From Candidatus Latescibacterota bacterium (lineage in GTDB: Bacteria; Latescibacterota; UBA2968; UBA8231), in contig CBDCXV010000001.1 in NCBI GenBank assembly GCA_965223905.1, forward strand, positions 1,600,001 to 1,664,000: DNA of 64,000 bases, in the 5' to 3' direction. The translations under genes were made by a program, and so were the position numbers. Positions 8,446-46,292 of this stretch are shown piece by piece (position 1 is the first letter of the stretch; the number at the start of each line of letters is the position of its first letter). The notes below the pieces were generated by a model. That model had not been told where the DNA came from. It searched no databases and worked only from the letters and a program-made list of their open reading frames with translations.

Positions 8446-9255
8446 ATGCAGCTCGACGACAGCCATTACGAGGCCTTCATGGAGCAGGGGTACGTGGTGG
8501 TCGAGGGATTCTACCCCGAGGAGAAGCGGGCCCGCATAGCCGCCCTCCTCCGCCGCATCATGCCCCCCTGGGAGGAGATTCGAGAGAACCCGCCCGAGGG
8601 GGGCCTGCTCAAGGACGACTTCCCGTACGAGGAGCAGTACTTCAACCACCTCATCCTCGACCCCGACCTGGTCGGCTTCGTGCGGCGGGTGCTCGACACG
8701 GAGAAGATCCACTTCCGCTACGCCCACAACTGGACCCGCTACCCCAACGGCCCGAAGGATAACCGCATGCACCGCGACAACGGCAACAACTCGCTGCTGC
8801 CGCCGTGCGGCGACGTCCGCTACGGGCAGATCAGCTCCTGGTACTTCCCCGAGGACGTGCCGGAAGACCAGGCGCCGATGATGGTCATCCCCAAGAAGTT
8901 CGGGGACGACGCCGGCAAGGGGGTGATGCTGGCGGTGCCGGGGGGCACGCAGATGATCTTCAACACCTATCTGTGGCACTCGGCCACCCCGTTCATGGGG
9001 AGCGAGGGGCAGCGCTACTCGGTGACCCGGATCTACGGCCGGGCGGATCATTACTGGGAAGGGGTCCGCAGCTACACCAACCTGGCGTCGGTGGAGCATT
9101 TCCGGGAGTTCATCGGCTCGATCAGCGCCGAGCAGCGGGAGCTGTTCCGGTTTCCCCCGGCAGGGCATTCGTACTACGACACCGAGACGCTGGCTGCGCT
9201 GGAGGAGCATTACCCTGGGTGGGGTGCCGGGGGGGAGTACACGGAGGCAGGGTAG
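8446..9255 (+). CDS. PhyH-family dioxygenase
   Basis: FMEQGYVVVEGF, MHRD, LWHSAT. Confidence 0.8.
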   Translation: MQLDDSHYEAFMEQGYVVVEGFYPEEKRARIAALLRRIMPPWEEIRENPPEGGLLKDDFPYEEQYFNHLILDPDLVGFVRRVLDTEKIHFRYAHNWTRYPNGPKDNRMHRDNGNNSLLPPCGDVRYGQISSWYFPEDVPEDQAPMMVIPKKFGDDAGKGVMLAVPGGTQMIFNTYLWHSATPFMGSEGQRYSVTRIYGRADHYWEGVRSYTNLASVEHFREFIGSISAEQRELFRFPPAGHSYYDTETLAALEEHYPGWGAGGEYTEAG

Positions 9256-9439
9256 GCTGGAGATGTAGGGGTAGGGAGTGAATGGCCAAGGTGAAGGCTT
9301 TGAACTTTCCCGGTTTGCAATGCCAGGGGATCTTTGTCAGGAGTAACTCCCCGCAGCCATTACCCGAACCATTTGTTCGGACGCTATCAGTAATGTGCCA
9401 TGGCATGAGAATTCGACCTGATACCGAGATGCTTTTTCC

Positions 9440-9772
9440 ATGAAATTGCCCGATGGCGAAAATGCGCTGGTACCAATCCAAAAAATTGAACAATATCTGC
9501 TTTCCGAGGTGCATGCCATAGGTCGAGCAAAGGCGCGATTCTTCCAAAGTGTCGGATATCAACCACGAGATGCTTCTGTTCTCGCCGCTGATTTAGCATC
9601 CATTGCCCGCAATGAGCAGGTCTCCGACGTTGCGGAGACACGTCATGGCACCAAGTATGTTGTGGATGGCAACCTGAAAACCCCATCGGGTTCGAGTGTT
9701 CGCATACGGACGGTCTGGATTGTTGAGGCAAGTCTGGATAGGCCGCGTTTGGTGACAGCGTATCCAGGCTGA
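9440..9772 (+). CDS. DUF6883-like putative toxin/nuclease domain protein
   Basis: KIEQYLLSEVHAIGRAKARFF...HGTKY...RTVWI...PRLVTAYP; lower GC; paired with DUF4926. Confidence 0.7.
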   Translation: MKLPDGENALVPIQKIEQYLLSEVHAIGRAKARFFQSVGYQPRDASVLAADLASIARNEQVSDVAETRHGTKYVVDGNLKTPSGSSVRIRTVWIVEASLDRPRLVTAYPG

Positions 9773-9792
9773 TCAAGGAGGATTGAGTTGAG

Positions 9793-10026
9793 ATGACTGA
9801 ATTGGATCTGGTAGTTCTCGAGGAGTCCATTGTAGAGCACGGTCTGGTGGCGGGCGATGTGGGGACGGTCGTCCATAGATATGCAGATGAGAAGGCGTCG
9901 GAGGTAGAGTTCGTGGATACCCAAGGTACCACCATTGCTGTTCTGACTCTGGAAGATTCGGTAGTGCGTACTCCCATGGCGGGTGAAATTCTACACGTTA
10001 GAGATGTATCGCCCGCGGGCTCCTGA
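9793..10026 (+). CDS. DUF4926-like protein (putative immunity/antitoxin partner)
   Basis: ELDLVVL...GLVAGDVGTVVH...EVEF...G.TIAV. Confidence 0.75.
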   Translation: MTELDLVVLEESIVEHGLVAGDVGTVVHRYADEKASEVEFVDTQGTTIAVLTLEDSVVRTPMAGEILHVRDVSPAGS

Positions 10027-10034
10027 CCTTTCTA

Positions 10035-10478
10035 GCAGATCAGCTCATGGTACTTCCCCGGACGTGCCGGAGGACCGGGCGCCGATGGCCGATGATGGTC
10101 GTCCCCAAGAAGTTCGGGGACGACGCCGGCAAGGGGGTGCTGCTGGCGGTGCCGGGGGGCACGCAGATGATCTTCAATACCTACCTGTGGCACTCGGCCA
10201 CCCCATTCAGAGCGAGCGAGGGGCAGCGCTACTCGGTAACCCGGATCTACGGCCGCGCCGACCATTACTGGGAAGGGGTCCGCAGCTACACCAACCTGGC
10301 GTTGGTGGAGCCGTTCCGGGAGTTCATCGGCTCGATCAGCGCCGAGCAGCGGGAGCTGTTCCGGTTTCCCCCGGCGGGGGACTCGTACTACAACGGGGTG
10401 ACGCTGGCTGGGTTGGAGGAGCATTATCCTGGGTGGAAGGCGGGTGGAGAGTACACGGAGTGGGGCAACTTAGATTAA
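10035..10478 (+). pseudogene. Degenerate direct-repeat copy of the 3' half of the PhyH gene 8446..9255
   Basis: Aligns to about 8826-9250 from GCAGATCAGCTC; no 5' half; small indels near its start. Confidence 0.9.
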
Positions 10479-10588
10479 CATGGGAAGTAAAACGATAACA
10501 GCAAATAATACTGTGAAGGAAAGTTTGGGGGAAAGGTTTCTAAAGGTGTCTTTATCTTGTTGTTGATTACGATAAAGAAACAGGGGCT

Positions 10589-11605
10589 ATGAAACGATAC
10601 TGGACCACTGATGAATTTGTACTAAGGCAGAAACGTCGAATACGAAAATCAGAACGCCTAAAGCAGAAAAGGAGAAAACAGTATAGGAGACCGCGCAAGG
10701 AATCACCGAAACCCCGAGCGACACGCTCGGGTCTGGAAGAACAAACCCTGGTTGCACCAGAAGTACTTAATCTTTTTGTAGAACCTAATGAAACTCTCAA
10801 CTACTGTAACACATTGCGATATCACCTTAACAAACGGGAAATTAAAGTCGATCTTGATCTTCGCAATATCCGTAGTTTTTCAAGTGATGCGCTTCTTTTA
10901 ATGCGGGCAATCATTTTGAACTCAAGAAGCCCCACTCGATCAGTCGGTGGAAATCTGCCGGTGGATCCGAAGGTGGCTTCCGAATTCAAAGCATCTGGTT
11001 TTTTCCAGGGGTTTGATCAGCCACCTGCTGATCTTCCTCCTGCCAAGGGGTTGATGTTGGACAAATCAAATTTTCGGGTGTATGCGAAAACTGCTTCGGA
11101 GTTGGTGGATTTCGCTGAAAATCACGTTGCAATCACTAGAGAATGCACTAACGCATGTTTTCAGACTCTTGTTGAGGTCATGACGAATACACACAACCAC
11201 GCGGGTGACAAGAAGCCCGGCATGCGTGAAGAAAAATGGTTTGTCAGTGTTTACTGCATAGAAGGATTGGCTTACTTCAATTTTGTTGATCTTGGAATTG
11301 GCATTTTAAAGAGCGCCCAAGCTATCAATTTCCTGAAAAGATTCGGTTCATCGCTTTTTGCGTTTGGCCGAATCAGCCTACTAAAAGAGGCCTTCAATGG
11401 TACAATCGGGTCTGTTACCGGTAATCCAGGCAGGGGTCTCGGGCTTCCAAGAATGAAATGGGATGCGGAAAACGATAAGCTGTCTGATCTCCAGGTATTG
11501 ACTTCTAATGTAATCGGATCTGTTGCTGATTTAGATTTCAAATCAATTCACCCTTCATTACATGGCACATTGTTTCGTTGGTGCGCCGGACCCAAAGGAG
11601 TCTGA
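10589..11605 (+). CDS. STAS-like domain + GHKL (HATPase_c) anti-sigma-type kinase/ATPase
   Basis: LDLRNIRSFSSDALL (STAS-like); N box EVMTNTHNHA, G1 FVDLGIGI, G2 GRGLGL; low GC. Confidence 0.7.
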   Translation: MKRYWTTDEFVLRQKRRIRKSERLKQKRRKQYRRPRKESPKPRATRSGLEEQTLVAPEVLNLFVEPNETLNYCNTLRYHLNKREIKVDLDLRNIRSFSSDALLLMRAIILNSRSPTRSVGGNLPVDPKVASEFKASGFFQGFDQPPADLPPAKGLMLDKSNFRVYAKTASELVDFAENHVAITRECTNACFQTLVEVMTNTHNHAGDKKPGMREEKWFVSVYCIEGLAYFNFVDLGIGILKSAQAINFLKRFGSSLFAFGRISLLKEAFNGTIGSVTGNPGRGLGLPRMKWDAENDKLSDLQVLTSNVIGSVADLDFKSIHPSLHGTLFRWCAGPKGV

Positions 11606-11608
11606 GGA

Positions 11609-11962
11609 ATGATAAAAATCAATATAGCTAAAGATTTCACTCAATTTCCTGGTCCTCGATACAAAAATCAGGGACCGGGGTCCGGACAGGAGTTCCGGGA
11701 AAACCACTTAGAACCTGCGTTCCTGAAAGCCAGAGAGACTAGTGGGCAAGTCACAATCGAACTCGATGGTCTAAAATACAGTTACCCCACGTCCTTTCTT
11801 GAAGAGGCATTTGGGGGCCTTGCCAGGCAGTACGGAATAGATGAAGTTGAGCGAATCTTACGCTTCGTGTCGGCTAATGAACCATTACTCGACACCGAAT
11901 GTCGCCACTACATAAAGCATGCACACGATACGCCCGGGACAAGTTTTAGGGGGGAGAAATGA
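11609..11962 (+). CDS. STAS-like DUF4325 domain protein
   Basis: IAKDF..PGPRY...GSGQEFR...IELDG...SFLEEAFGGL. Confidence 0.8.
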   Translation: MIKINIAKDFTQFPGPRYKNQGPGSGQEFRENHLEPAFLKARETSGQVTIELDGLKYSYPTSFLEEAFGGLARQYGIDEVERILRFVSANEPLLDTECRHYIKHAHDTPGTSFRGEK

Positions 11963-12507
11963 AAATACCAAAAAAAATAATCCTTCCCTTAGTGATCGGC
12001 GTTCTCATTGGAACCTTTGTAATGTCGTGGGTGGATACACCTCACATTTCAATTTGCTTGATAAATGCGGGGGTAACCTTGGTGGTCGGCTGGTGGATCC
12101 ACAGCGCTGTTCGACGCAGGGGGGAATCAGAGCGCGTTTCGACCGATTACTTATCAAATCTTAGCCGCCGGATTGACGAGTTGATAATGACGTGTCAAGG
12201 CGTTACAAACAGGGGGCCCGACGGTACTATTGAATTCACACGGCTCTCGAATGAGATATATTGGTTATGCATTGTTGCGGAGAAAATGAAACCCAGTCTG
12301 ACTTCATCGGTAGAAAAACTCCGTACACATTTCTTTATTTTCAAAACGCACTTGACCGGGGATGCTAATCCAGAAATTGGATTGGCATTGATGGAAGCAA
12401 ACGAAATGCGAATGACAGTTTTGAAAATCCATTGGGATCTGTGTCGATGTGTCTTAGATCGAAGGACTGATACGGGCCTTTTTCCCGGTTTCGAGGATGA
12501 TGTTTGA
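11959..12507 (+). CDS. Hypothetical protein with two N-terminal transmembrane segments
   Basis: Hydrophobic IILPLVIGVLIGTFVM and ISICLINAGVTLVVGWW; ATGA overlap with the upstream gene. Confidence 0.7.
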   Translation: MKIPKKIILPLVIGVLIGTFVMSWVDTPHISICLINAGVTLVVGWWIHSAVRRRGESERVSTDYLSNLSRRIDELIMTCQGVTNRGPDGTIEFTRLSNEIYWLCIVAEKMKPSLTSSVEKLRTHFFIFKTHLTGDANPEIGLALMEANEMRMTVLKIHWDLCRCVLDRRTDTGLFPGFEDDV

Positions 12508-12532
12508 AGTGGTCCGAAAGTAGGTGCTGGGT

Positions 12533-13273
12533 TTAAATTTTTTGCAGCGCCAGCCAGCGTTCCCACCAGACTCGCACCAGGTCGGGCAGGGCCGGCCCGA
12601 TGTTCTCCGCCACGCGCCACTGGAAGCAGTTGTCGGGCTCCAGCTTGGGTTCGTCCGGGTCGTACTTGCACAGCCCTCCTCTCAACACGAGCCGCTCGTT
12701 CACCCCCGGGGGCAGCTTGCCGCGGTGGATGGTGTTGCCGTCCCAGAACAGGGTCTGGCCCCGCTTGAGGACGACGTTCTCCATGCCGGGGAGATCCCTG
12801 TGCCTGTCGGAGACGAGGGCGTCCCGCTCCTCGTCGGTGCGGTAGCGGCTCTGGCTCCAGGGGACCAGCCACAGGCAGGGGTCGTCGATCAGGGCCGGCT
12901 GCCAGCGGAAGTTGGTCTTCGGCTTGTTGAGGAGGGCCATCTCCCCGTCGTAGGGGAGGTCGCGGTTCGTCCCCCCAACGTCCCGGTGCCAGCCGGTGTC
13001 GTAGGTCTCCCGGGCGTTGCGCAGGTGGACGTAGCCCAGCCGTAACTCCTTGCCCAGGAAGGCCTCGACGTATTGCAGCAGCTTCGGGGTCAGGAAATGC
13101 TCGCCGAATACGGGCTCGCCGAACTCGGGGGCGATCAGCCCGAAAATCGCCCCGGCGTCGGGCCCCATGCCGGGGACGTCCACCTCTCCGGACCGCACCT
13201 TGTTCCAGACGTTCCAGGAGGCGGTCTCGAGCCGTTTCAGCATATCCGGGCCGAAGACGTCGTAAGATGCACC
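12533..13273 (-). pseudogene. 5'-truncated PhyH-family dioxygenase
   Basis: WHRD, CLWLVPWS, IHRG; the frame runs upstream straight into the stop codon of the CARDB segment and the usual N-terminal 'GY/F..V' region is missing. Confidence 0.65.
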
Positions 13274-13534
13274 CTAATTTGACTCGCCGACTTGAATCGA
13301 GCCACAGTTGTTTTGGGTGTTCGACTCTCCTGCGACCGCATCCACACAGGCAATGTAGTACGTGCCCTCACTCGGCTGGGTGGTTAGATCGATCTGCTCA
13401 TTCCTGATGACGGCAGGCGCCAGGGCGTCCACGGTGTCCGTGCCGACTTCCGTATCGTCTGGAGAAAACGTCGCGTCTGCCGACCGGTAGTAGCGCAGGG
13501 TTGTAGCCGCCGACGTAACATCGCCATCATTTTG

Positions 13535-14997
13535 GGCTATATACGGGTTTTTCAACGTGGTATTTATAGCGTTTCCCCAATGAGATTTTTAGGGTTTCAT
13601 ACTGTACGGAATCGGGCCGGAATCTGCGCAGGGATATCGAGGTCTCCGACGCACAGGTAAATCAGGTCGGCAAAGGCATCCAGAGTTTTAAATCCACTGG
13701 CTCGATTCTTGACCATGCGGATAATGCGATTGAGCCCTTCGGCGGCGGCGTTGGTCAGGTGCGTGTCGACGAAGGCGGTGATGCCGGCCGCCTGCTTGCG
13801 CACCGTGTTGACGAACTTGCGCAGGGGCTGCAGGCGGCTGCGCAGGGCCGCCGTCGTCCACTTCTTGAGGAAGCGTTCGGCGGCCCAGCGCGCCTTGTAG
13901 CGCCAGAAGTGCTCGAACTCGTCCTTCAGGCTTAGGCGCGGTAGATGCGGCGGTTGGCCTTCTCCAGGGTTTGGAGCGTGCGCCGATCCTTTCGCGAGCG
14001 CTGGGCGGAGTGATGCAGCAGCACCCAGCGCAGGCCCTTGAGCAGCTTGCGGTCCTCGCCACAGGCTTGCCGCCACTGCTCCTTGCGCACCTCGTCGACG
14101 GCTTCGTTGAGGGCCTTGACGACGTGGAATCGGTCCAGGACCAACTCGGCGTTGGGACAATGCTGCCGGATGGCGCCGATGAAGGTCTCGCTCAGGTCGC
14201 AGCAGGCCCAGCGGATGCGGTCCTTCTGGAAGTCGCTGAGATGGTCCCGGAAAAACGCGTCGATGGTCTTCCGTGCCTTGCCCTTGCCGACCCAGACGAC
14301 ACGGGAGCGTTCCAGGTCGTAGACCAGGGTAGCGTATTTATGGCCCTTGGCGTAGGAGATCTCGTCGATGCCGAGGGTCTTCAGCCGGCGGATGCGGTGC
14401 CCCGTACGCCGGCGCTCGATGAGCCGGTGCAGCTGGTCGGACAGGGTCGACGGGGCCAGACCCAGCAGGCGCGCGGCGGCGGCCTGCGTCATCCACTGGC
14501 AGTACCTCAGCAGCAGGTATTCGAAGCGGTAGCTGACCTGGGCCGAGGGCGCCGCCCAGGGCACCTCCTCGACGCGACGGCCGTGGGTCGGGCAGCGGAT
14601 CTCCCGAGGGGCGTGGTGCAACCAGAGGGTACGGCCGCAAACGCGGACGTCGCGCCAGCGGCGGAACTCCATGACCTGTACGATCTTGCCGCGGCGCCCA
14701 CACTCGGGACACCGGCACCCGTTCCTTTGGGGCTTCACCGCGATCACGACGGCCGCTTCTTCCCCGTGTCCTTCGAACCACACGCCCACCGCGCGAAATC
14801 CCTTGAATTGGAACAGCTTGGAGACGAACTTCATAGCGGTCATAGGTCGCCTTCCCTTCCCTTTCTTGGGGAGTGCTTGATGGGGATACACCAAGCATAG
14901 GGAACGACCTATGGCCTTGTCATGTACTCAGATGGACAGCAAGGGCTCAGGTACTTTCCGTACTTACGTTTCGGCGTTGAAAAACCCGGATAGACCC
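13535..14997 (-). mobile_element. ISL3-family IS (transposase frameshifted ~13932), 8-bp TSD TCATTTTG
   Basis: CPECG zinc ribbon, LGIDE, LDRFHVVK, TNAAAEGLN; inverted repeats GGGTCTATCCGGGTTTTTCAA / GGCTATATACGGGTTTTTCAA; TSD at 13527-13534 and 14998-15005. Confidence 0.93.
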
Positions 14998-15129
14998 TCA
15001 TTTTGAACCCCTACCTCCAGCGAAAAACCAAATGCGCCCTCGGGATTGACCCAAGGACTATGGGACACCACAAGAGCATGGATGTCCAAGTCTGGTTAAT
15101 TCCCGGGTGGCGGCGGTGGCGCACTGACG

Positions 15130-16720
15130 GTCACTTGCACCCCGCTGGAGCAGTTGTTGCCGGTGGCGGATTCTTCAGAAACCGCATCAACGCAAGCCCC
15201 GTAGTAGTACGTGCCCGCCGTCGCCGGTGCCGTCAGACGAATCGTTGCCGCGTAGTTTTGCAGAGGGCCTTTCTCCCCCACTACATCCGTGCCCTCCAAC
15301 ATGTCGGATGTCGTGATCGTCGCGTCCGTCGAGCGGAAGTACCGCACCGTTGTGGTTGCCGACTGTGCATCTCCCTGGTTGTGCACCGTCACAATTAGCC
15401 TGAACGTCCCGCCCGTCTCCGGGGTGCTGTCGCTCACATTTGGCCCTAGCACAATCAAGTCCGGCGCAGGCCCCTCCCCCTCCACCGTGACCGTCACTTG
15501 CACCCCGCTGGAACAGTTGTTCCCGGTGGCGGATTCTCCAGAAACCGCATCAACGCACACCCCGTAGTAGTAGGTGCCCGCGTCCGTCGGTGCCGTCAGA
15601 CTGATCTCGATCTCTTCACTGTTAGTACCGGAGGCCGTAAGGGCGCCTACCTCACCCGTGCCCACCTGCGTATCGCTCGAAGAGATCGACCTGTCCGTTG
15701 AACGGTAGTAGCGTAGCGTCGTCGCCGACGACGAACCATTGCCCTGGTTGTGCACCGTCGGAAATAGCCCGAACGTCTCGCCCGTCTCCAGGGTGCTGTC
15801 GCTCACATTTAGCCCTAGCACAACCAAGTCCGGCGCAGGCCCCTCCCCCTCCACCGTGACCGTCACTTGCACCCCGCTGGAACAGTTGTTCCCAGTGGCG
15901 GATTCTCCAGAAACCGCATCAACGCAAGCCCCGTAGTAGTACGTGCCCGCCGTCGCCGGTGCCGTCAGACGAATCGTTGCCGCGTAGTTTTGCAGAGGGC
16001 CTTTCTCCCCCACTACATCCGTGCCCTCCAACATGTCGGATGTCGTGATCGTCGCGTCCGTCGAGCGGAAGTACCGCACCGTTGTGGTTGCCGACTGTGC
16101 ATCTCCCTGGTTGTGCACCGTCACAATTAGCCTGAACGTCCCGCCCGTCTCCGGGGTGCTGTCGCTCACATTTGGCCCTAGCACAATCAAGTCCGGCGCA
16201 GGCCCCTCCCCCTCCACCGTGACCGTCACTTGCACCCCGCTGGAACAGTTGTTCCCGGTGGCGGATTCTCCAGAAACCGCATCAACGCACACCCCGTAGT
16301 AGTAGGTGCCCGCGTCCGTCGGTGCCGTCAGACTGATCTCGATCTCTTCACTGTTAGTACCGGAGGCCGTAAGGGCGCCTACCTCACCCGTGCCCACCTG
16401 CGTATCGCTCGAAGAGATCGACCTGTCCGTTGAACGGTAGTAGCGTAGCGTCGTCGCCGACGACGAACCATTGCCCTGGTTGTGCACCGTCGGAAATAGC
16501 CCGAACGTCTCGCCCGTCTCCAGGGTGCTGTCGCTCACATTTAGCCCTAGCACAACCAAGTCCGGCGCAGGCCCCTCCCCCTCCACCGTGACCGTCACTT
16601 GCACCCCGCTGGAACAGTTGTTCCCAGTGGCGGATTCTCCAGAAACCGCATCAACGCAAGCCCCGTAGTAGTAGGTGCCCGCGCCCGTCGGTGCCGTCAG
16701 ACTGATCTCCTCACTGCTAG
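15130..16720. repeat. Near-perfect 732-bp tandem repeat (two alternating CARDB domains per unit)
   Basis: Identical shadow ORFs offset by exactly 732 bp (15289/16021, 15498/16230, 15739/16471). Confidence 0.9.
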
Positions 16721-19700: not shown

Positions 19701-20112
19701 GCGCCGGCCGGGGGGCGGCCTGGCGCAGGGCGTTCAGGGGAAAGGCGAAGTAGCCGCTCTCATCGGCGGTGGCCCGTAGCGAGCGCCCCAGCTCGGCGAA
19801 CAGCCGCACCCGCGCCCCGGCCGCCGGGGCGCCCGAAGACAGAAGCACACGCCCCTCCAGAAGCGGCTCGGCGCCGGCGCCTGACCCCGGTGCCGCGAGG
19901 CAGCCGAGCACCGCCAGCAGCCATCCGAAACCGCCGGCCCCCGGGAAAGAGGCCCAGGAGCGTCGGGCGGACAGGGTGCGGGAAGTGGACAGGGTGCGGG
20001 AAGTATCCATGGGGTTCTCCAGTCGCAAGGTCGGCCGCATGCAGGACCGGGGTTGCCGAAGCCCCGGCAGGAACGCACCGGGGGCCCCGCGCGTTCGGAT
20101 CCTGTGGATGTA

Positions 20113-30700: not shown

Positions 30701-30771
30701 TTCGACCGGCCCCTGCTCTACCTGATGGGGGACGGTTCCACCTGCTCGAGCTGGCTCATCGCGGCCGGAAG
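30701..30771 (+). repeat. Degenerate scrap of the 5' region of gene 33896..35803
   Basis: TTCGACCGGCCCCTGCTCTACCTGATGGGGGACGG... vs 34085 TTCAACTGGCCCCTGCTCTACCTGATGGGGGGCGG... Confidence 0.8.
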
Positions 30772-30968
30772 AGCGCCCCGCCGCCGCCGTTGCGAAAATC
30801 CGGGCCGCGTTCGCCGTCGAAAAGGCGGCGCAGCCTGCGATCCGAAGAGCTTCTCGCGCGGCGGACAACATCCGGACCGATACGAGCCGCCACCTGGCGG
30901 CGCGCTTCGCGACTCGACAGCCACTCCTCCCATTTCCAGGAAACCTTGACCGGCTCAGTCGAGCTCAC
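30756..30968 (-). CDS. Small hypothetical partner of the nucleotidyltransferase-like gene
   Basis: GTG start overlaps the 3' end of 30955..31548; C-terminus probably degraded. Confidence 0.3.
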   Translation of the reverse strand: MSSTEPVKVSWKWEEWLSSREARRQVAARIGPDVVRRARSSSDRRLRRLFDGERGPDFRNGGGGALFRPR

Positions 30969-31548: not shown

Positions 31549-31603
31549 ACTGACAAGGGTACCGGCGGCAGCGGACGCCGGCAACGCGCTTGGAGTACCA
31601 AGG

Positions 31604-31655
31604 GCTGCCGGTCCCGAAGCGCGCGATCGAGGAGTACCTGAAGACGCGGACCTGA
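31604..31655 (+). repeat. Degenerate copy of the last ~55 bp of the RraA gene
   Basis: GCTGCCGGTCCCGAAGCGCGCGATCGAGGAGTACCTGAAGACGCGGACCTGA vs 28275 GCTGCCGGTCCCCAAGAGCGCGATCCAGGAGTACCTGAAGACAAGGACCTGGTGA. Confidence 0.85.
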
Positions 31656-31729
31656 TGGAAGAGTGCGGATGAAGATGGAGCGGCTGGCCCATTCCATCGG
31701 CCAGACAGGCTTTGGCGAGAAGGCGGCTC

Positions 31730-37978: not shown

Positions 37979-38062
37979 CGAGACGGTGTTCTGGCGCTTG
38001 TGATACGGGCTAACGCTGCACACAGGCATGCCCCTCCAGCACCGACCTCACCGCCTTGTAGA
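37979..38062 (-). mobile_element. IS256 transposase remnant, distal half
   Basis: YKAVRSVLEGHACVQR..PYHKRQNTV (QRCxxHK motif), continues the fragment at 44606. Confidence 0.7.
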
Positions 38063-38178
38063 CCCTAACGTTGCATAAATCTGTTTGAAGCGGTGGTTGT
38101 GATCAGGCGGCTTCCTTCAGGATTTCGAGGAAATGCAACAGATCTTTTTCGACTTTTGGATTGGAGTTCAAGGTCAGG
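38063..38178 (-). mobile_element. IS1380 terminal remnant (inverted repeat + transposase 3' end)
   Basis: Nearly identical to 43056-43172 (CCCTAACGTTGCATAAA...; LTLNSNPKVEKDLLHFLEILKEAA*). Confidence 0.9.
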
Positions 38179-39561
38179 CTGGACTTTTGCAAAAGGCAGA
38201 ATTCCTGGGATAATCGGTCAAGGATAGAGGGTAGCGCGAACTCGATGGAACTTGGTATGTTTGGTAGGACGAAGGCATCCCCCGCCTTCGTTTCCCCTGG
38301 CCATGAGAGAGGTTGTTCATGCCAGGTATTGTTGATTTTCCCACGGTGGTTGAAGACGCGGTGGCCGAGTTCGGCGGCCTCTTCGCCAACGCCCCGGAGC
38401 GCCGTCACTTTGGCGAGTATCTGACCGGGTTGATGGTGGCCGAACGCAAAAATGTATCGGCGATCAACGCCGAGTTCGTCGAGACCACCGATCAGTCCTG
38501 CCTGAACCGCTGGATTACGCAGGTGCGATGGGACGGGAAATGGCTCAACGAACATCGCCTGGAATGGTTGCAGGAGCGTCCCTCGACGCGCTATTCGGGG
38601 CGCGGGGTGATCGCCATCGACAACACCTTGGTCGGCCACAGCGGAGAAAAGATCGAGGACGTGGGTTGGTTTTGGGATCACTCCGACCAGCGCCATAGGA
38701 TTGCCCACGACTACGTCATCGCCAACTACGTGTGCACCTCGGGGAAATACTATCCGATGGAATTCCTGTCGCTTTCGCAAGCGCCGGGAAGGGGAGACGG
38801 ACACCTCCTTCAAGAGCCATACCGAGCTGTTCAAAGAGCTCGTGGACTGGGTCGTGTTCCGCCAGATCCCGGGCGATTTCGCCTTCGACTGCTACTTCAG
38901 CAGTGTCGAGTGTCTCGATCACCTCCATAGTCATGAGCGCGGCTACGTAGGGGCCCTGAAGAGCAACCGCAAGGTCGAGTTCAAGGGCGGCCTGATGAAG
39001 GCCGCCGAAGTGGCTGCGAAGATCCCACCCGAGGATCGCAAACAGGTCAGCATCGGCAAGCGCAAACAATGGTATTTCACCAAAACCCTGAGTCTGCCCA
39101 AGCTCGAGCACCGGGTTCGCCTGGTGATCCTGTGGGATCGCAAGAACGGCAGGGAAGCGGTCAAGTTTCTACTGACCCATCGCGTGCACTGGGAGATCAG
39201 TCGTATTCTGAACGTCTATCGCAAACGCTGGACGGGCACCGAGACTTTCATCGGGACGGCAAGCACCATCTGGGCATGGGAGACGGTCAGTTACGCAGCG
39301 GCGAGGGCCAGACTCGGCATAGGTACCTCGTGATGCTGACGCACAGTCTGCTCATGGCACGGAGGCGGCAGGGCCGTGCGCGTGACTGGGCTCATAGCGT
39401 GCTGACGACCATTGGCGAGGCCTGTCGAGCCGTGTCGCGAGAAACGCTCAGTAAAACCATCACCTGGGCGGTCGAACAGGCCATAACAGTAGGGTGGACG
39501 CAGGAGAGAATCGTCACACACCTAAAACTTGTGTAAAAAAGCGGAGTTTGCAAAAGTCCAG
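38179..39561 (+). mobile_element. IS701-family IS, frameshifted transposase; no TSD (adjacent deletion)
   Basis: Inverted repeats CTGGACTTTTGCAAA / TTTGCAAAAGTCCAG; YLTGLM...KNVS.I, IAIDNT, AFDCYF, YRKRW..E..HRDGKHHLG. Confidence 0.8.
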
Positions 39562-42015
39562 TCGGTAACCCAGTCAGCGAACACCCGGGACCAGGCGCCC
39601 ATCGGCTGCGGCGGAGGAAAGGATCGCGTGTCTTCGGGGTTGTCGGGATAATACCATTTCAGAGAACCGCCTCCCATCACGCTCCAGTATCCGATCCCCG
39701 CGCTCTGCTGTCTCAAATCGGCGTTATACAACTTGGTAAACACGTCGGTGGCCAGAGGAAGAGGATCGCCTTCCGTGTGATGAGCAATCCAGGCATTCCG
39801 TCTCTGCTTTATGAGATGATTGAAGCCGCTGCGGTCATACAGCTCTGGAAGTCCCATGAAATGCCCGTACTCATGCGCCATGATGGCAACCATTTCAGGG
39901 AACGTCTCCCCCTTTAGAACCATCATATCCTTGGATACTTTCTTCGTGGAACCGGCCGGCAAAAAGCTGAATGTGTCGGCAATGCCTCCCAGCCGACACT
40001 TATTGAATTTTTCAGGAACAACGACGGCAAGCGCATCGTAATCCTCGCAGTCAATAGCGACATCGGCGTAGGCAGTAGGGGCGGCTTCCAGAACTTCGGT
40101 TCCAAATGTCTTGTAATTCCAAGACGCACATCCGTACTTGGCATCATTGCAGAATCAAACTTGCTGCGATACCATTTGGTCACGATGGTCCTGTTCGCAC
40201 CTTGAACCGTGAGAGTCTCGCGTGACATCTCCTTCATGTAATGGGAAAAACTGCCGCTCACGGACACATCCAACAGATCAAGCGCCGACCGGTCCGTGTT
40301 TCCGCTTCTTCCTTCAAAATGATCGCTTTCCAGATCATATGGAGCCGTAGTTATATCGGAAAAGGTGGCAAACAGAACCAGCATCTTGATCGTGCCGTCG
40401 TGGAAATGTTCCTCTTCCGGGGTGAATTCCGCAAAGGAGCTTGCCGAGCCGCCCGACGATCTTGTCGCGCCGGAATCGTCTCCGGTAAGCCCGTACCCGC
40501 AGAAAATTTCCTGACCCCATGCAGCACCGGTCCACAAAATAACCGCCAACAACAGGGTCTATCCGGGTTTTTCAACGCCGAAACCTGAGTACATGACAAG
40601 GCCATAGGTCGTTCCCTATGCTTGGTGTATCCCCATCAAGCACTCCCCAGGAAAGGGAAGGGAAGGCGACCTATGACCGCTATGAAGTTCGTCTCCAAGC
40701 TGTTCAAGTTCAAGGGGTTTGGCGCTGTCGACGTGTGCTTCGAAGGACGCGGGGAGGAAGCGGCCGTTGTGGTTGCGGTACAGCCCCACAAGAAGGGGTG
40801 CCGCTGTCCCCAGTGTGGGCGCCGGAGCAAGATCGTACGGGTCATGGAGCCCCGCCGCTGGCGCGACGTCCGCATTTGCGGCCGTACCGTCTGGTTGTAC
40901 CACCGCCCTCGAGAGATTCGCTGTCCGACCCACGGCCGGCACGTCGAGGAGGTGCCCTGGGCGGCGCCCTCGGCCCGGGTCAGCTACCGCTTCGAATACC
41001 TGCTGCTGACCTACTGCCAGTGGATGCCGCAGGTGGTCGCCGCGCGCTTGCTGGGCCTGGCTCCTTCGACCCTGTCCGACCAGTTGCATCGGCTCATCGC
41101 GCGCCGACGTACAGGCCATCGCATCCGCGGGCTGAGGACCCTCGGCATCGACGAGGTCTCCTACGCCAAGGGCCATAAATACGCCACCCTGGTCTATGAC
41201 CTGGAACGTTCCTGTGTCGTCTGGGTCGGCCAGGGCAAGGCGAGGGAAACGATCGATACGTTCTTCCGGGACCATCTCAGCGCCTTCCAGAAGGACCGCA
41301 TCCGCTGGGCCTGCTGCGACCTGAGCGAGACCTTCATCGGCGCCATCCGGCAGCATGGTCCCAACGCCGAGTTGGTCCTGGACCGATTCCACGTCGTCAA
41401 GGCCCTCAACGAAGCCGTCGACGAGGTGCGCAAGGAGCAGTGGCGGCAAGCCTGCGGCGAGGACCGCAAGCTGCTCAAGGGCCTGCGCTGGGTGCTGCTG
41501 CATCACTCCGCCCAGCGCTCGCGAAAGGACCGGCGCACGCTCCAAACCCTGGAGAAGGCCAACCGCCGCATCTACCGCGCCTGGCGCCTGAAGGACGAGT
41601 TCGAGCACTTCTGGCGCTACAAGGCGCGCTGGGCCGCCGAACGCTTCCTCAAGAAGTGGACGACGGCGGCCCTGCGCAGCCGCCTGCAGCCCCTGCGCAA
41701 GTTCGTCAACACGGTGCGCAAGCAGGCGGCCGGCATCACCGCCTTCGTCGACACGCACCTGACCAACGCCGCCGCCGAAGGGCTCAATCGCATTATCCGC
41801 ATGGTCAAGAATCGAGCCAGTGGATTTAAAACTCTGGATGCCTTTGCCGACCTGATTTACCTGTGCGTCGGAGACCTCGATATCCCTGCGCAGATTCCGG
41901 CCCGATTCCGTACAGTATGAAACCCTCAATATCTCTCTCTGTAAACGCTATAAATTGTCCTTTGAAGAATCCGGATATAGCCCAACAACAGATACACTGC
42001 CATCATGAATACCAT
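39562..42015 (-). pseudogene. Immune inhibitor A / M6-family metalloprotease, split by ISL3 in its signal peptide and truncated by IS701
   Basis: MVFMMAVYLL|LAVILWTGAAWG rejoined across ISL3; MLVLFATFSD, AHEYGHFMGLPELYD, GYWSVMGGGS, MGAWSR. Confidence 0.8.
40555..41982 (+). mobile_element. ISL3-family IS, intact transposase (40622..41920), 8-bp TSD CAACAACA
   Basis: Inverted repeats match 17/21; TSD at 40547-40554 and 41983-41990. Confidence 0.95.
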
Positions 42016-42029
42016 CCTTTTCCAAGTTG

Positions 42030-42899
42030 TCATTTTGAAAGAAAAGTCTGCTTGATGCGCCCCCATGAATCTGCCGAAATCACAGAGCCATACAGAGATT
42101 CCCAATCGTCAGCACAGCACCAATAGGGATGAAGGAGAGCATCGTCAGGCTCTTGAAGTTGGAAATGCGAGGTTATGTTGAATCCTCTACTTTCTGTCCG
42201 ATCGTACTGATCGAGGTCATACATCGTCCAGGACAAGCCAATGATCATACCCGGTTCTAGGTCCTTGACGACAGAGGCTGACCCATCTTCCTCGGAAAAA
42301 GGATCAAATAGCGTCCAGGCCGATTCGATAAACATCCAATGCTCCGGGCGGGTTTTTTCCGGAATGTCGTCAAAACAGAATCTGCAGGGAGGACCGTCCA
42401 TATAGGAAAAGGCGAATGATACATACTCTGTACTCTCATACCACGCAGGTTCGCGGCCGCGAAGGTCAAAGCTCAGTGAGAAATCATGGGTGGTCGGCTC
42501 GTAGCCCATAGACAGGCTGTATCCAGGCATGAAGGTGCCGGAATGGTCAGCGTCAAAATGGAGAACGAACGGATTGGGATCGCTCCACTGGTCGTCGTAT
42601 CGCCATTCCTGTATATACAACTGGCCGGGCTCGCCCCATCCAACCAGAATTTGAGAATACAGGGAATGGGGGTCCGGAGCCTCGTTCTCTTGCGTCCTAC
42701 TCCACTTCGATGAAATCATGTAAGGCCAGAAGCCGGCAAATGTGCTTTCATCCTGCAACGGGAGATCGGGTATGCCATCGATGACAGGCTGAAGCTCTTC
42801 CGGCCACCACCAGAAGACAGGGTAGATTGTCTCTTCGGGCTCGTGAGCTTCCACGCCGTTTAATGACAGAACTATTGCTGATACCAATAAGCGAATCAT
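42030..42899 (-). CDS. Secreted CBM9/DOMON-like protein with SWGRIK C-terminal tail
   Basis: Signal peptide MIRLLVSAIVLSLNGVEA; IYPV..PVIDG, VGW....LYI, FDADHSG, LEPGMIIGL; ends ADSWGRIKQTFLSK. Confidence 0.65.
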   Translation of the reverse strand: MIRLLVSAIVLSLNGVEAHEPEETIYPVFWWWPEELQPVIDGIPDLPLQDESTFAGFWPYMISSKWSRTQENEAPDPHSLYSQILVGWGEPGQLYIQEWRYDDQWSDPNPFVLHFDADHSGTFMPGYSLSMGYEPTTHDFSLSFDLRGREPAWYESTEYVSFAFSYMDGPPCRFCFDDIPEKTRPEHWMFIESAWTLFDPFSEEDGSASVVKDLEPGMIIGLSWTMYDLDQYDRTESRGFNITSHFQLQEPDDALLHPYWCCADDWESLYGSVISADSWGRIKQTFLSK

Positions 42900-43055
42900 G
42901 AATCTTCTCCTGTGCGCCCGATCACACCGGCGAGGTGTTAGAGGTGACAGTCCTCTGTGTTGAAGGTGTAGCGAACCACGACAGCCCCGAGTCATGCGTG
43001 TGCGCCGGCAACGGCGCAGGCGAAGCGTTGGCAGGGGGAGGCGTAGGTCTGTAAA

Positions 43056-44605
43056 CCCTAACGTTGCATAAATCTGTTTGAAGGCGGTGGTTGTGATCAG
43101 GCGGCTTCCTTCAGGATTTCGAGGAAATGCAACAGATCTTTTTCAACTTTTGGATTGGAGTTCAGGGTCAGGGTCAACTCGCCCTTGGGCTGAGTGAGGC
43201 GCCCGGCGCGTTGAATGAAGCGATGACGCAGCGTGTCCAAGGTTTGGAAGGTCCACGCCGCCGGACGTTTGCCACGCGAATAGTTCGATCGCGGCTGCGC
43301 CAGCATCTGCATTTCGCGTCCCAGATTGTGGGCCATCATCGCACACAAAGTAACCATCTGGTTGCCGAGCAACCGTCGGGTGGGGATCAGATCCAGCCCG
43401 GCCTGTTGCTTGGCCTCGGCGAAGATCCCTTCCTGGGCGCCGCGGCCATAGTGGAAGAGGAGCACGCTGCGTGGCGAGTTCATCTTGTTGGTAACCACAA
43501 CGCGGTACTCGTGATCGATGTGCCGGGGTTCGAACAGATCCAGTTGCAGCGCTTGCTTGGTCTGACGCGGCACCGCACGGCGCACAAACAGAAACCGGTA
43601 GCAGGCCGGCCAGCTTTCCGGTTTCCAGTCACTCTCGAAATAGGAGCAGTGCTCATCGAGGTAGCGCCAGCGCTGGCGCGCTTCGATCTGGTCCTTGAGT
43701 ACGGGAAAGCGTTCGAAAGGGACACTGATCGTGCATCCGACGCCATACAGGTCCATGAGAGTGAGCGTGTTTTGGCTGAAGAAGGCGCTGTCCAGTCGCG
43801 ACTCGAGCACGGTGGGCGCCAAGGCGTCGCGCACGCGATCGAAGGCGTCCATCATGAACGCATGGGCGTCCTTGCTGTCATGGACGTTGCCGGGCCGGTG
43901 AAGGACATCCAGAAACTGTCCGGTTTGCGCCACCGTGCAGAACAGGTTGTAGTAGCTGCGCGCCCCCTTCTTTTTCGGATTATAGCCAACGGCGGTCCCT
44001 TCGGCATGACCACAGGTGGAGATCACCGAGCCGTCGAAGTCGAGAGTCAGACGGGGGAAGCGCTCACGCTGGAGCGCTTGCATGACCAGGGTCGAAGACA
44101 GGTGTCGCACTTTTGCGATACTTGAATGGCCCATTTTTGCCAGCGCGCGACTGAGGGTGGCCACATCCGGCAGGCGACGTAAGCCCAACAAACGCAGGAC
44201 CACCGGATCGTCCCGGTAATAGTCCACGTCCCGCAGCCGCCGGAAGCCCAGCAACAGATGCACGATGAGCAACAACACAATGACATGGGGAGCAAAGGTC
44301 GCTGCGCTTTTGGCGGGGAAGCAGGACTTCAGTCGAGTCTTTAGATGCAAGCGCCGAAAGAGCAGTTGAAAAACGATCACTCCCGCAAAGGAAGTAAGCC
44401 GTTGATCTTCGAAGCGAAGACGCGGGAGCTTGTGAAAACGGGCCAAAATGTCTTGTTTTCTGAACCTCACTTGCGGTGTCCTCCTGGAAGGGGTCGATAC
44501 AGGTCATGGGTGACAGTATCAAATACCCCCTTTTTCAGAGGGCGCCGCAAGTGACAAGGTGCACTCCGGAGAAGAAAAAAGCCCTGTTTTTATGCAACCA
44601 GAGGG
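43056..44605 (-). mobile_element. IS1380-family IS, transposase 43097..44470
   Basis: LTSFAG, TLDFDGS, GYNPKK, RPGNVH, RLDSAF, YGRGAQE; inverted repeats CCCTAACGTTGCATAAA / CCCTCTGGTTGCATAAA. Confidence 0.92.
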
Positions 44606-44905
44606 TAGAGCCCTTCTCGCCGTCGAGGACAACCAGTAGTCCGGCTTCGTACTGCAACCCCCGCTCGACCAACTCGGACAGAAACCGGCGGCAGACCCGC
44701 TCGTTCTCGGTGGCCGCCTGCACGAAGCCCAGAGGAATCTTTCTGTCCGTCCAGGGTGACGCCCAGAGGAGCGATGAGGATCTCCTCGCCTGTCTGCTTC
44801 AGGCAGGTCGGCGAAGCTCTTGCCGTCGAGGAACAGCGCCACCAGGTCGTATACTTCCAGGGATCGCTCCTGGAATTCGCCAGCTTTCAGAGCCGTGCCT
44901 TTCAC
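44606..44905 (-). mobile_element. IS256 transposase remnant, proximal half
   Basis: FQERSL..YDLVALFLDGKSFA; ATENERVC..FL..LVERGL....LLVVLDGEKG. Confidence 0.8.
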
Positions 44906-44941
44906 GTAGCGAGTCCTGTTCGTTCAGGAGGTTTACTTGAA

Positions 44942-45858
44942 ATGATACCAATATCGGTCGGGATCCGTGCTGCTTCCCCCTTGCTGTGCTCGCCACACTG
45001 CAGCCAGCTCAGAGCCATGTTGGGGATCGCGTCTATCCCATTTACGAGTTGACCGAGGAGATGGTCGCACAGATCGATGTCAAGGACGGGTTGCTGGATG
45101 AGTGGACGGAAAGAGAACCCACATTGACACTATTGGATTTCGAACTGAAACCGTATGTGTCCGATATCGCATCGTTTGATCCGGCTGATCTGGATTTCAG
45201 GATCTGGCTTGGTTGGACCCGGTCGCCCAGTCGGATCTATGTTGCTGCAATAATGGCAGATGATGTCTACGTAAACGACTACGAGGGCCCTGAAAAATCG
45301 AGCTTTTCGATGCTCGCCAACGACTCGATGGCGCTGTTGATCGATGCTGACCACAGCGGTGGATCTTCTAGGCCCAACAACCAGCCGGGAGCTGACGCTG
45401 AGAGAATTTTTGAAGCTTCAAACGCGCAATGGTACGACGCTTTGTCTGAAGCACCTGGGGATGGGAACCTTGAAATACGTGCCATCGACAAGCGCGGTTG
45501 GCCGGTTCGTCCACCGTTTGGAGACGGCGGAGGGGGTGTGCAAAGCGAGAATCCTGTATTCTGGGTGACGGAATTTTACGTGACTCCGTTCGCGCACTTC
45601 GACTATGAAGACCAACAAGCAAGTGCAAGGTACGAACTGGTTCCAGGCCGAATTGTCGGATTTCGATTGCTGGTGCAAGACCGCGATTCCGGTGACTTCC
45701 CTCCCGGGAAGTACGATTTACCGGTCTGGGATCTGGAGTTGGAGTTCACGGCGGATGGGTTCGTCGACGGGCTCTTGGTGGGCGTCGGCGATGGGATTGA
45801 CGACAGTGCCGTGCACGCGAATTCCTGGGCCCGAATCAAGGCGTCGTTGAGTCGCTGA
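44942..45858 (+). CDS. Secreted CBM9/DOMON-like protein with SWARIK tail (possible frameshift in signal peptide; open frame from 44986)
   Basis: CAGGAGG RBS before ATG 44942; VYPIYEL..IDVKDGLLDEW, WLGW....IYVA...DD, IDADHSGG; ends ANSWARIKASLSR. Confidence 0.7.
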
Positions 45859-45896
45859 AATAATGCTGCCCCCCAGCTCGGCCAAGGAGGTGTACC

Positions 45897-46045
45897 GTGG
45901 CGGTTTGCTTCGTGGTGATTCTGCTCTGCCTGTGTATGGCATCAAGGCCATCTCAGGTGTACCCGATCCCCGAAATCACAGATGAGATGATGCAGGAGCT
46001 CGACCTGGCCGACGGACACACCGAGGAATGGACGGAGTTGAACTG
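45897..46045 (+). pseudogene. Truncated N-terminus of another member of the same secreted family
   Basis: AAGGAGG RBS; signal peptide then VYPIPEITDEMMQELDLADGHTEEWTE vs VYPIYELTEEMVAQIDVKDGLLDEWTE. Confidence 0.7.
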
Positions 46046-46185
46046 TGGTGAACAGTATTTCGAAGCTCGCGTATTGAAGGGTATAGAAAAGAAATTCAAC
46101 GAACTCCACGTCCATGGAAGCAAGGCGAGCAAGGCGGTTCAAGTTCCCGTTGAACATTTCCTGGATCTGCACCAGGTCTGAAGTA

Positions 46186-46292
46186 TCCCGCCTGACCGTC
46201 GAACTCCCCCCCCCCCCCGCATGGAGATCCCCCTCGACCTAGGGACGGAGCGGTACGTCAGCGAGCCCTCATACCGCAACGGACCGTTCTAA
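46186..46292 (+). repeat. Degenerate copy of the last ~100 bp of gene 35885..37831
   Basis: LTVELP..MEIPLDLGTERYVSEPSYRNGPF* vs LTVELPPGMEIRLDLETERYVNQPSYHNGPF* (37730-37831). Confidence 0.9.

Follow-up and report, generated by a model that had tools for sequence, protein, structure and literature searches.

Introduction

How do ordinary genes come to be followed by a block of unrelated DNA and then by a second, diverged copy of their own 3′ end? The question is raised by a 64,000-nucleotide (nt) stretch, here called the window, of a Candidatus Latescibacterota bacterium (assembly GCA_965223905.1, contig CBDCXV010000001.1). We refer to the genome, 7.9 Mb in 11 contigs, as G000; the window is G000:C1:1600001–1664000. 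Three of its genes show this arrangement: a PhyH-family gene (locus 1), an RraA-like gene (locus 2), and the second of two tandem paralogs, paralog B (locus 3). An earlier note on this DNA had proposed that a capture mechanism uses gene ends as recombination hotspots and stacks cargo from relatives behind them. We find that the downstream copies are old resident gene ends joined to their resident neighbors, and that the gene end beside the cargo is the imported one. Integrase-free, homology-anchored insertion-duplication, by crossover with a circle or by a homologous plus an illegitimate join, probably accounts for this pattern; the recombination route itself is what we infer.

Results

Gene-end repeats in the window

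Each gene was compared with the whole window by BLASTN, and the repeats were then aligned locally. The PhyH-family gene is repeated at 8826–9246 and 10035–10460 (89.7% identity over 428 columns, E = 2.3e-165), the RraA-like gene at 28275–28331 and 31604–31661 (∼88% over 54–58 nt, E = 2.1e-14), and paralog B at 37735–37830 and 46191–46291 (82% over 101 columns, E = 2.4e-23). All three repeats are direct, confirming the earlier claim, and their upstream arms end 9, 0 and 1 nt, respectively, from the stop codon. Six low-copy local repeats were found in the window, and only these three are of the tail type; the others are the paralogy of A and B, a domain repeat in a CDGSH gene, and a 72-nt fragment of the paralog A 5′ region (30701–30771). 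Remaining BLASTN matches of the three genes had E values of ∼1e-6 or worse, apart from the A/B paralogy, a 76-nt match to the end of an insertion sequence (IS; E = 2e-30) and a 68-nt repeat in the neighboring CDGSH gene (E = 1.6e-9). For comparison across species we used two genomes of the same genus, G001 (3 contigs) and G002 (1 contig), our only two congeners.

At locus 1, the intact gene (8446–9255, plus strand; Pfam PhyH, 34.1 bits) has orthologs with 92% amino acid (aa) identity in G002 and 89% in G001. Its 3′ part, the upstream arm of the repeat (8826–9246), is followed on the same strand by a cassette of ∼0.52 G+C content (GC; 9247–10034), which holds a DUF6883 toxin-like gene (9440–9772, 98.5 bits) and a DUF4926 partner (9793–10026, 64.6 bits). 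Next come tail copy 1, a 5′-truncated PhyH pseudogene recognized by alignment (10035–10478, plus strand), and an older cargo (10479–12520, plus strand) made up of a 338-aa ATPase-like open reading frame (ORF; 10589–11605), a STAS-like DUF4325 gene (11609–11962, Pfam) and a 182-aa ORF. A convergent PhyH-like gene (12533–13243, minus strand) is, by synteny, the conserved right flank of this hotspot.

Comparison with the two relatives tells the old side of this arrangement from the new. G001 has an empty site, in which the PhyH match is followed by 41 nt and the convergent PhyH-like gene (window 12540–13263). In G002, a homolog of the STAS/ATPase cargo (69% identical; window 10782–12295) directly adjoins the end of PhyH, and neither cassette nor copy is present. 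Past 10460, the last codons of copy 1 resemble the C-terminal extension of G002 PhyH, while the final 9 nt of the intact gene are unique in the four-way alignment. Because the end of copy 1 and its cargo are like G002 and the intact end is unique, the copy and the STAS/ATPase cargo are the residents, and the cassette and the intact gene end are the newcomers.

Site patterns within the repeat lead to the same distinction. At eight sites copy 1 has the state of one relative (six with G002, two with G001) and the intact gene that of the other; together with the remaining site patterns, this identifies the two arms as different alleles. Substitutions confined to the intact gene number 5, 4, 6 and 11 per successive ∼200 nt along PhyH, and ten of them fall in 9181–9241, a burst of lineage-specific change in the last ∼65 nt. 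A loss of 2 nt and a gain of 7 nt near the 5′ end make copy 1 a pseudogene, and its 15 specific substitutions are spread over codon positions 1, 2 and 3 as 3, 5 and 7, as expected for decay.

Two alleles side by side could also be a chimeric assembly of co-occurring strains. The source is metagenomic, strain variants exist at this junction, and one contig from a probable source run stops exactly at 10034. Six public runs hold part of 8300–12600, in the form of contigs; we counted a junction as bridged when at least 31 letters were covered on each side. Two of the runs, X1 and X2, may come from the source sample of the assembly. Both 9246/9247 and 10478/10479 are bridged, with no differing letter, by contigs of the same sample: one X1 contig spans 9132–10060, crossing the gene–cassette junction and covering the first 26 letters of the copy, its specific base among them, and a second spans 10346–12727, so that copy, old cargo and flank are joined. 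Moreover, copy 1 is a frameshifted pseudogene rather than some strain's working gene, the junction joins non-homologous DNA, and the same anatomy is found in G002 and G001. A chimera is thus extremely improbable. In runs X3 and X5, which come from other samples, 9746–10034 is matched by a 400-letter contig (0 and 3 differing letters) whose remaining 111 letters are unlike the window, showing that other DNA follows the cassette there. Neither X3 nor X5 covers 10572–12473, an absence to which the coverage rule gives no meaning, and joints that skip DNA, such as 8801 to 10250, were disregarded where a side had fewer than 31 letters.

The cassette of locus 1 is present once in the genome, with 80–81% nt identity to versions in two other genera. 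As adjacent small genes that both exceed their Pfam cut-offs, DUF6883 and DUF4926 form a predicted type II toxin–antitoxin (TA) pair. According to the available part of a 2026 preprint, DUF6883 is a BECR-fold RNase toxin, DUF4926 its immunity partner, and DUF4258 a member of the same superfamily. For the ATPase-like ORF of the older cargo, which the earlier note had labeled GHKL, no Pfam match was found at E ≤ 0.1; its look-alike clusters are named ATP-binding, and HATPase_c is annotated on 13–18% of their members, which is a lead only.

A ∼50-nt conserved element lies upstream of DUF6883 (9342–9403) and contains a 6-bp hairpin (CCGAAC, 5 nt, GTTCGG). It recurs at G000:C1:1176197–1176258, where it sits between a frameshifted tyrosine recombinase and an NYN-domain gene, and also at G000:C10:1670814–1670855 and G002:C1:6350–6400; it could be an operator or a regulatory site of another kind. 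We considered an integron/attC reading when 62 nt of the cassette were found to match a site near a recombinase. The shared piece is this element, and inspection by eye revealed no attC-like structure; specifically, no attC-type inverted repeat was seen at 9220–9460 or 9990–10060. A search of Rfam over 8400–12600 gave nothing above the gathering score, and one sub-threshold match to a viral hairpin was taken as chance.

At locus 2, the intact RraA-like gene (27433–28329, plus strand; Pfam, 66.7 bits) contributes its last codons to the repeat and is followed by a four-part cargo on the same strand (28332–31603). The parts are a 376-aa ORF (28399–29529), a DUF5678 gene (29579–29863, Pfam), a weak PIN-like ORF (30026–30532, sub-threshold), and a block (30496–31596) that holds the paralog A fragment. 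Tail copy 2, the old RraA end (31604–31661, plus strand), follows ∼70 nt from a convergent AAA-ATPase_like/PDDEXK_9 gene (31730–33553, minus strand; Pfam), the old neighbor of RraA, which is present in G001 and absent at the G002 locus. The earlier note had called this cargo "defense-type"; neither PADLOC nor NCBIfam matched it, and Pfam gave only sub-threshold HSDR_N_2 and PIN matches.

The gene orders of the three species differ in an informative way. G001 has RraA, 65 nt, a 198-nt piece (window 30781–30978), the ATPase gene and paralog A, and apart from those 198 nt it has none of cargo 2. G002 has RraA, the cargo, the block, ∼100 nt and paralog A, without the ATPase gene; the cargo match is 89% over 26674–29957 and that of the block 98% over 30496–31596. 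The window has RraA, the cargo, the block, 7 unmatched nt, the RraA tail copy and the ATPase gene. Tail copy 2 is 92% identical to the RraA end of G001 versus 88% to the window's own, and at the AA/CG dinucleotide in "...GACAAGGACC..." it agrees with both relatives while the intact RraA deviates. Given these orders and the likeness of copy 2, in the window an arrangement of G002 type is stacked ahead of one of G001 type.

Some further observations concern this locus. The 72-nt fragment at 30701–30771 is 86% identical to 34085–34156, near the 5′ end of paralog A, and lies 3.1 kb upstream of A; G002 has it too, ∼930 nt upstream of its A. An identity of 98% between species, against 89–95% in the flanks, suggests that the block at 30496–31596 may have been exchanged recently. 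The 3′ end of the ATPase gene contains three tandem 18-nt units (31751–31801), and its last ∼80 nt are not homologous to those of G001.

At locus 3, paralog B (35885–37831, plus strand; repeat arm 37735–37830) is 73% identical at the nt level to its tandem paralog A (33896–35803), and both resemble DUF8034 clusters, as look-alikes that provide a lead only. The earlier note had taken the tail copy as closing a cargo of 8.3 kb. Comparison with the relatives contradicts this. The bulk of that DNA, 37981–46041, is a later insertion, absent from G002 and, save for ∼80 nt at its left edge, from G001; with other ORFs, it carries three multi-copy IS (Pfam DDE_Tnp_1, ISL3 and DDE_Tnp_1_4, at ∼38179–39562, 40585–41982 and 43051–44607), from families with several to many copies each in the genome. 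In G001 and G002 the spacer instead holds an ORF of ∼88 aa with a CxxC zinc finger, whose resemblance to MqsA and YokU is weak (Pfam E 1.6e-4 to 3e-4, below cut-off); in G002 it is preceded by a DUF4258 gene (E = 3e-18, above cut-off). The window keeps only the C-terminal half of this zinc-finger, antitoxin-like gene (46042–46181, plus strand, within ORF 45897–46181), identified by its match to the ORF of the relatives; the 8 kb insertion destroyed the N-terminus.

Tail copy 3 (46191–46291, plus strand) has the same left junction in all three species, at a distance from paralog B of 355 nt in G001 and 627 nt in G002. To its right lies the conserved flank of the hotspot, a ketol-acid reductoisomerase gene (46423–47409, minus strand; Pfam KARI_N and KARI_C) that is 92–94% identical in G001 and G002. 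Because copy and junction are common to the three species, copy 3 predates the genus and is not part of the present cargo: it stood behind a small TA cassette before the 8 kb arrived. The idea of stacked alleles from relatives thus holds for loci 1 and 2, where arrangements like those of relatives or co-occurring strains, including empty and donor-like forms, were found, and fails for locus 3, where the copy is already in every species compared.

Repeats at other loci with informative relatives

Genes elsewhere in the genome show the same anatomy. On contig 11 at 1.40 Mb (C11:1.40 Mb), a 956-bp PIN pair separates an AAA_14/DUF4143 gene from the 397-nt copy of its tail (96.7%) further downstream. 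G002 provides the exact empty site, and the copy with its downstream DNA is collinear with the G002 gene tail and what follows it. Fourteen sites vary: six are gene-specific, all in the middle or 3′ part, and six are copy-specific, four of them in the first 50 nt. This region (G000:C11:1401500–1408000) is a nested stack of genes X1 and X2, the PIN pair, an X2 tail copy and an X1 tail copy, of which G002 keeps X2 and the X1 tail fragment and has lost nearly all of X1.

At C11:2.04 Mb, G000 and G002 share the copy, and G001 has a single gene whose end and downstream DNA correspond to the copy and its downstream DNA. The G002 copy is closest to the G001 gene (94.9%, 8 shared sites) and not to the intact gene's tail; at those 8 sites G000's own copy sides with the intact tails. 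Nearby, a ∼1.1 kb element (G000:C11:2046861–2047987), 97% identical to one G002 site and ∼65% to dozens more, carries a 358-aa ORF without a Pfam family and may be an unclassified IS.

At the hsdM locus, a MazE–PIN pair, both members above cut-off, is followed by an 832-nt tail copy (94.7%). Each arm has 26 specific sites, of which 23 and 18 lie within the repeat, and 15 of the 23 and 11 of the 18 are at third codon positions when G001 is taken as reference. Since the differences are mostly third-position in both arms, both are alleles of functional type, not a fresh duplicate and its decay. The syntenic hsdM of G001 is without a cassette. Elsewhere, G001 has a second locus where 288 nt of hsdM tail, then the cassette, then the initial 78 nt of the copy occur at 96% identity, compared with 93% in the host gene. 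At its left edge (G000:C2:505675) the copy meets a perfect 7-bp palindrome (GCGCGGG, 5 nt, CCCGCGC); two more hsdM fragments on G001:C3 (78 and 37 nt) begin at the same point, which may be a recurrent breakpoint. Four further loci were of less use: C11:1.80 Mb (both copies partial and rearranged) and C10:0.05 Mb (parent in a multi-copy family) were uninformative, and at C2:0.18 Mb and C2:0.52 Mb the relatives match the repeat only, not its flanks.

At locus 1, C11:1.40 Mb, C11:2.04 Mb and, in part, locus 2, the copy adjoins the ancestral downstream DNA and a relative has the empty site, which is the mark of insertion-duplication. The arms are different alleles, and of kinds present in relatives, as the earlier note had supposed. 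These data bear on the possibility that the copies formed in place, either as partial duplicates from template switching in replication or as decayed tandem paralogs, locus 3 then being a third paralog after A and B. Such an origin would fit the tandem arrangement of A and B, the weak similarity of the end of A to copy 3 (61%), and the palindrome at the boundary of the hsdM copy. It sits poorly with arms that differ as alleles do, as at the eight split sites of locus 1, with the predominance of third-position differences in both hsdM arms, and with a G002 copy at C11:2.04 Mb that groups with the single gene of G001, even if the G000 copy sides with the intact tails. At locus 3, homology is limited to ∼100 nt in all three species, and the spacer is a TA cassette rather than the remains of a paralog. 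We therefore consider duplication in place to be quite unlikely.

A genome-wide excess of gene-end fragments

The whole genome was compared with itself by BLASTN in 30-kb tiles, a scan that covers repeats up to 30 kb apart. It yielded 2,899 high-scoring segment pairs (HSPs), 2,831 of them at least 40 nt long. Genes were called by a home-made rule combining longest ORFs with GC at third codon positions, which leaves start codons unreliable. Removal of pairs with more than three genome-wide copies, with a spacer under 100 nt, or with both arms in one gene left 376 pairs. These comprised 117 paralog pairs, 73 with both arms intergenic, 51 internal/upstream direct, 44 internal/downstream direct, 43 tail/downstream direct, 14 with a short parent, 13 head/upstream direct, 8 head/downstream direct, 6 tail/upstream direct, 6 inverted, and 1 other. 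From the 43 tail/downstream pairs we set aside nine whose fragment lay in a frame open for at least 450 nt and merged two duplicates, leaving 32 events. The scan undercounts: it missed the RraA case, whose copy lies in an ORF called on the antisense strand.

Gene-end repeats, which the earlier note had suggested counting against chance, are in excess: 43 of 95 HSPs with fragments downstream of their gene reach the stop codon within ±30 nt, versus 7.2 expected (Poisson P = 9e-20). Among upstream fragments, 13 of 70 reach the start codon versus 4.2 expected (P = 4e-4), and ∼10 further fragments of the internal/upstream class are at most 250 nt from starts that were perhaps called too far upstream. 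A convergent gene layout was considered as the cause of the excess of tails over heads and rejected, with 13 of the 32 events convergent against a baseline of 39%. The spacers have a median GC of 0.586 versus 0.657 for the parent genes, and 28 of 32 are lower than their parent; stretches of matching length taken downstream of random genes give a median of 0.638. TA or defense genes are frequent in the spacers. Pfam, run on 140 ORFs (18 event loci and two others), identified as cargo PIN or PIN_3 toxins, a MazE–PIN pair, an AHJR-like nuclease, an AAA_21/AAA_15 ATPase, PDDEXK_1 with AAA_22, SIR2_2, Schlafen/AlbA_2, WD40 and FGE-sulfatase proteins, and unassigned ORFs.

The anatomy of intact gene, cargo and displaced 3′ end is that of site-specific integration into protein-coding genes; phage 21 and e14, for example, integrate in the 3′ end of icd, the element bringing the replacement end. 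The repeats might accordingly be relics of integrase-borne elements whose integrase acted in trans or was deleted along with most of the element, so that addictive TA genes and the displaced end alone were left. The genome does have integrases to offer: a six-frame search of all contigs for PF00589 and PF00239 returned 19 and 1 matches, respectively, and, as mentioned, the element upstream of DUF6883 recurs beside a frameshifted tyrosine recombinase (C1:1176197). None of these matches lies in the window, in agreement with the earlier note, and none lies inside any of the 32 events, the nearest being 4.5 kb away. Integrase-bearing intermediates of up to 21 kb were likewise absent among the repeats within the 30-kb reach of the scan. 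Finally, the boundaries of the 32 events, compared by eye, have no motif in common, upholding the claim that there is no common attachment (att) site, and the repeats vary from 45 to 832 nt in length. On this evidence we regard integrase relics as improbable.

The boundaries also speak to a dedicated system that would capture tails by recognizing gene ends or stop codons. The gene–cargo boundary lies 0–3 nt past the stop codon in at least nine events, and precedes it by a few codons at locus 1 and hsdM, which is tighter than random intergenic insertion would give. This precision is matched neither by a common motif nor by an associated gene, and the tail copies themselves span the whole range of repeat lengths. 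A boundary at the stop codon follows from the end of homology between diverged alleles, and 5′-end fragments occur too. A dedicated tail-capture system is therefore very unlikely, and gene ends need not be hotspots in their own right, as the earlier note had them: the stop codon marks where conservation ends, and fragments of 5′ ends are found upstream of genes as well, if more rarely.

Other features of the window

Twenty-two window ORFs were searched with PADLOC, which matched none, and NCBIfam, which gave one sub-threshold match to an M6 metalloprotease domain. Pfam identifies two ISL3 copies and a DDE_Tnp_1_4 transposase in the window. The ISL3 copies (13532–14931, split in two ORFs, and 40585–41985) are inverted, 93–96% identical and 25.6 kb apart. 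Collinearity with both congeners stops at ∼13.3 kb, shortly before the first copy, and the inverted pair may mark a rearrangement. Two highly repetitive surface-type proteins are encoded on the minus strand at 15096–20040. The first contains CARDB and 732-bp units up to 100% identical; the second, of 1038 aa, has twelve LDL-receptor class B repeats and a dockerin, and is found elsewhere in the hotspot in G002. PhyH-domain genes are unusually dense here, with six in 43 kb (5997–8429, 8446–9255, 12533–13243, 21034–21912, 23585–24424 and 47520–48329), one of them fused to HEAT repeats.

Discussion

We propose that DNA from a relative, carrying the 3′ part of a gene together with a small cassette, would recombine with the resident gene through their common homology. 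The product would be a hybrid intact gene with an imported end, the imported cassette, and the 5′-truncated old end still attached to the old downstream DNA; neither an integrase nor an att site would take part. Two routes could lead there. By the first, a single, RecA-driven crossover would join the gene and a circular "tail fragment plus cassette," a Campbell-type insertion-duplication; we lean toward this circular route, tentatively. By the second, homology-facilitated illegitimate recombination (HFIR), upstream homology would anchor a linear fragment whose other join, inside the resident tail, would be illegitimate; to this possibility we give somewhat less credence. Either would do without a capture mechanism beyond known ones, contrary to the suggestion of the earlier note.

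Further rounds, together with IS insertions and deletions, would stack and erode the blocks. The boundary would ratchet toward the stop codon, where selection, and with it the homology between diverged donor and recipient ends, comes to an end. Scars at gene heads would be rarer since there the gene would be parted from its promoter. TA pairs stabilize the DNA that carries them, and TA cargo may be enriched because a cell in which the two repeats recombined would lose the cassette and die.

One observation in favor of a circle is that the same cassette-to-hsdM-fragment junction recurs at another G001 locus, which fits a traveling unit of tail plus cassette. A crossover with a circle also makes a prediction: on the 5′ side of the crossover the gene should be of resident type and the copy of donor type, with the types exchanged on the 3′ side. 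C11:1.40 Mb shows this pattern, and the mean position of gene-specific sites is 3′ of that of copy-specific sites in five of five events, although per-event site counts are small and the sites linked. The pooled one-sided test gives p = 0.10, and one event only reaches 0.047, the first of several points that weigh against our proposal. At hsdM, sites specific to the gene are intermingled with those specific to the copy along most of the repeat. The G000 copy at C11:2.04 Mb is a mosaic that suggests later gene conversion. Both effects could mimic or erase the crossover pattern. The excess of tails over heads is real but moderate and rests on home-made gene calls, with 13 classified 5′-end fragments upstream of genes and ∼10 more probably hidden by uncertain starts.

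At locus 1 the cassette–copy junction (10034/10035) is covered by only the 26 letters of one short-read contig, below our 31-letter threshold. No circular molecule was seen among the contigs of the public runs, in which a circle-specific junction would not stand out. Their only backward joint, from 10453 to 9328 with 18 extra letters, is in a minor X1 contig of depth 2.1 and is better read as a further strain allele of the gene–cassette junction than as a circle. Furthermore, the same cassette occurs in two other genera (G012 and G019) with no flanking tail repeat within 1.5 kb, nor was one found within that distance of partial versions in five more genomes, so that these provide no independent replicate.

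The insertion-duplication reading admits an extension, which we regard as speculative and on balance doubtful. The repeats might belong to a class of mobile units, "tail-anchored cassettes," that need only host homologous recombination. A TA or defense cassette would travel with a copy of the 3′ part of its host gene, form a circle by looping out when the two tail repeats recombine, and recreate the repeats by a single crossover into any naive allele in a new cell, and it would be kept since loss of the TA pair kills the cell. If such cassettes exist, they would explain the building and spread of integrase-free TA islets and defense hotspots.

Whatever the route, these scars are of practical use. 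The usual proposal for how TA islets and defense hotspots without mobile-element genes enter chromosomes, a double crossover in flanking core genes, is traceless and cannot add new DNA beside old. A displaced gene-end copy marks each event, tells the old side from the new, and lets donor-type and recipient-type arrangements be sought in relatives. With ∼30 scars in one 7.9 Mb genome, one-sided recombination becomes countable, and scanning complete genomes for gene-end repeats could measure how far islands grow in this way and what role TA cargo plays in retention.

Several known systems resemble the arrangement described here; the published sources below were available in part, and our statements refer to those parts. 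Site-specific integration at the 3′ end of a protein or tRNA gene likewise produces a hybrid gene followed by cargo and, as a direct repeat, a displaced and diverged 3′ end; it needs an integrase and a fixed core site, neither of which was found here. A closer likeness is to C-terminal displacement in rhs genes (Jackson et al. 2009, PMC2935791), which also show an intact gene, strings of displaced 3′ fragments of variable length, GC-poor cargo and no integrase, and for which excision and insertion by homologous recombination of a small circle of gene stretch plus cargo was proposed. The rhs parent is a polymorphic toxin from which a variable toxic tip and its immunity gene are displaced. The parents here (PhyH, RraA-like, DUF8034-like, hsdM and others) are ordinary genes, conservation of the duplicated part extends as far as the stop codon, and an independent cassette forms the cargo; thus the variable-length, 5′-truncated fragments and GC-poor cargo of an rhs array are present and the polymorphic-toxin parent is not.

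Arrays of type VI secretion system (T6SS) effector–immunity modules in V. cholerae (Kirchberger et al. 2017, PMC5361080) offer a second parallel. There, new modules from relatives push older ones, with a 3′ effector remnant, downstream; HFIR was proposed and no integrase found, and HFIR has also been proposed for variable segments generally (PMC2884548). The T6SS case concerns one functional system under selection for immunity retention, whereas here ∼30 unrelated loci of one genome are affected. The mechanism is therefore not new, having already been proposed for rhs and T6SS arrays. As for its setting, we found no description of gene-end duplication beside TA or defense islets at ordinary genes in the available texts, supplements aside.

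Very small islands that consist only of a TA pair between core genes, and lack mobile-element genes, have been described as TA islets (Mol Biol Evol 2026, PMC13617665), and their spread through homologous recombination in the core genes on either side was proposed. The available text reports duplications of a short palindrome and of a TA system and does not describe duplication of a flanking gene end. Integrase-free core defense hotspots (Johnson et al. 2023, PMC10250203) similarly hold variable defense cargo between conserved genes. How such hotspots are built and how TA islets integrate are called open questions in these two papers. The defense hotspots are without mobile-element scars; at the loci described here scars are present, and they point to a route.

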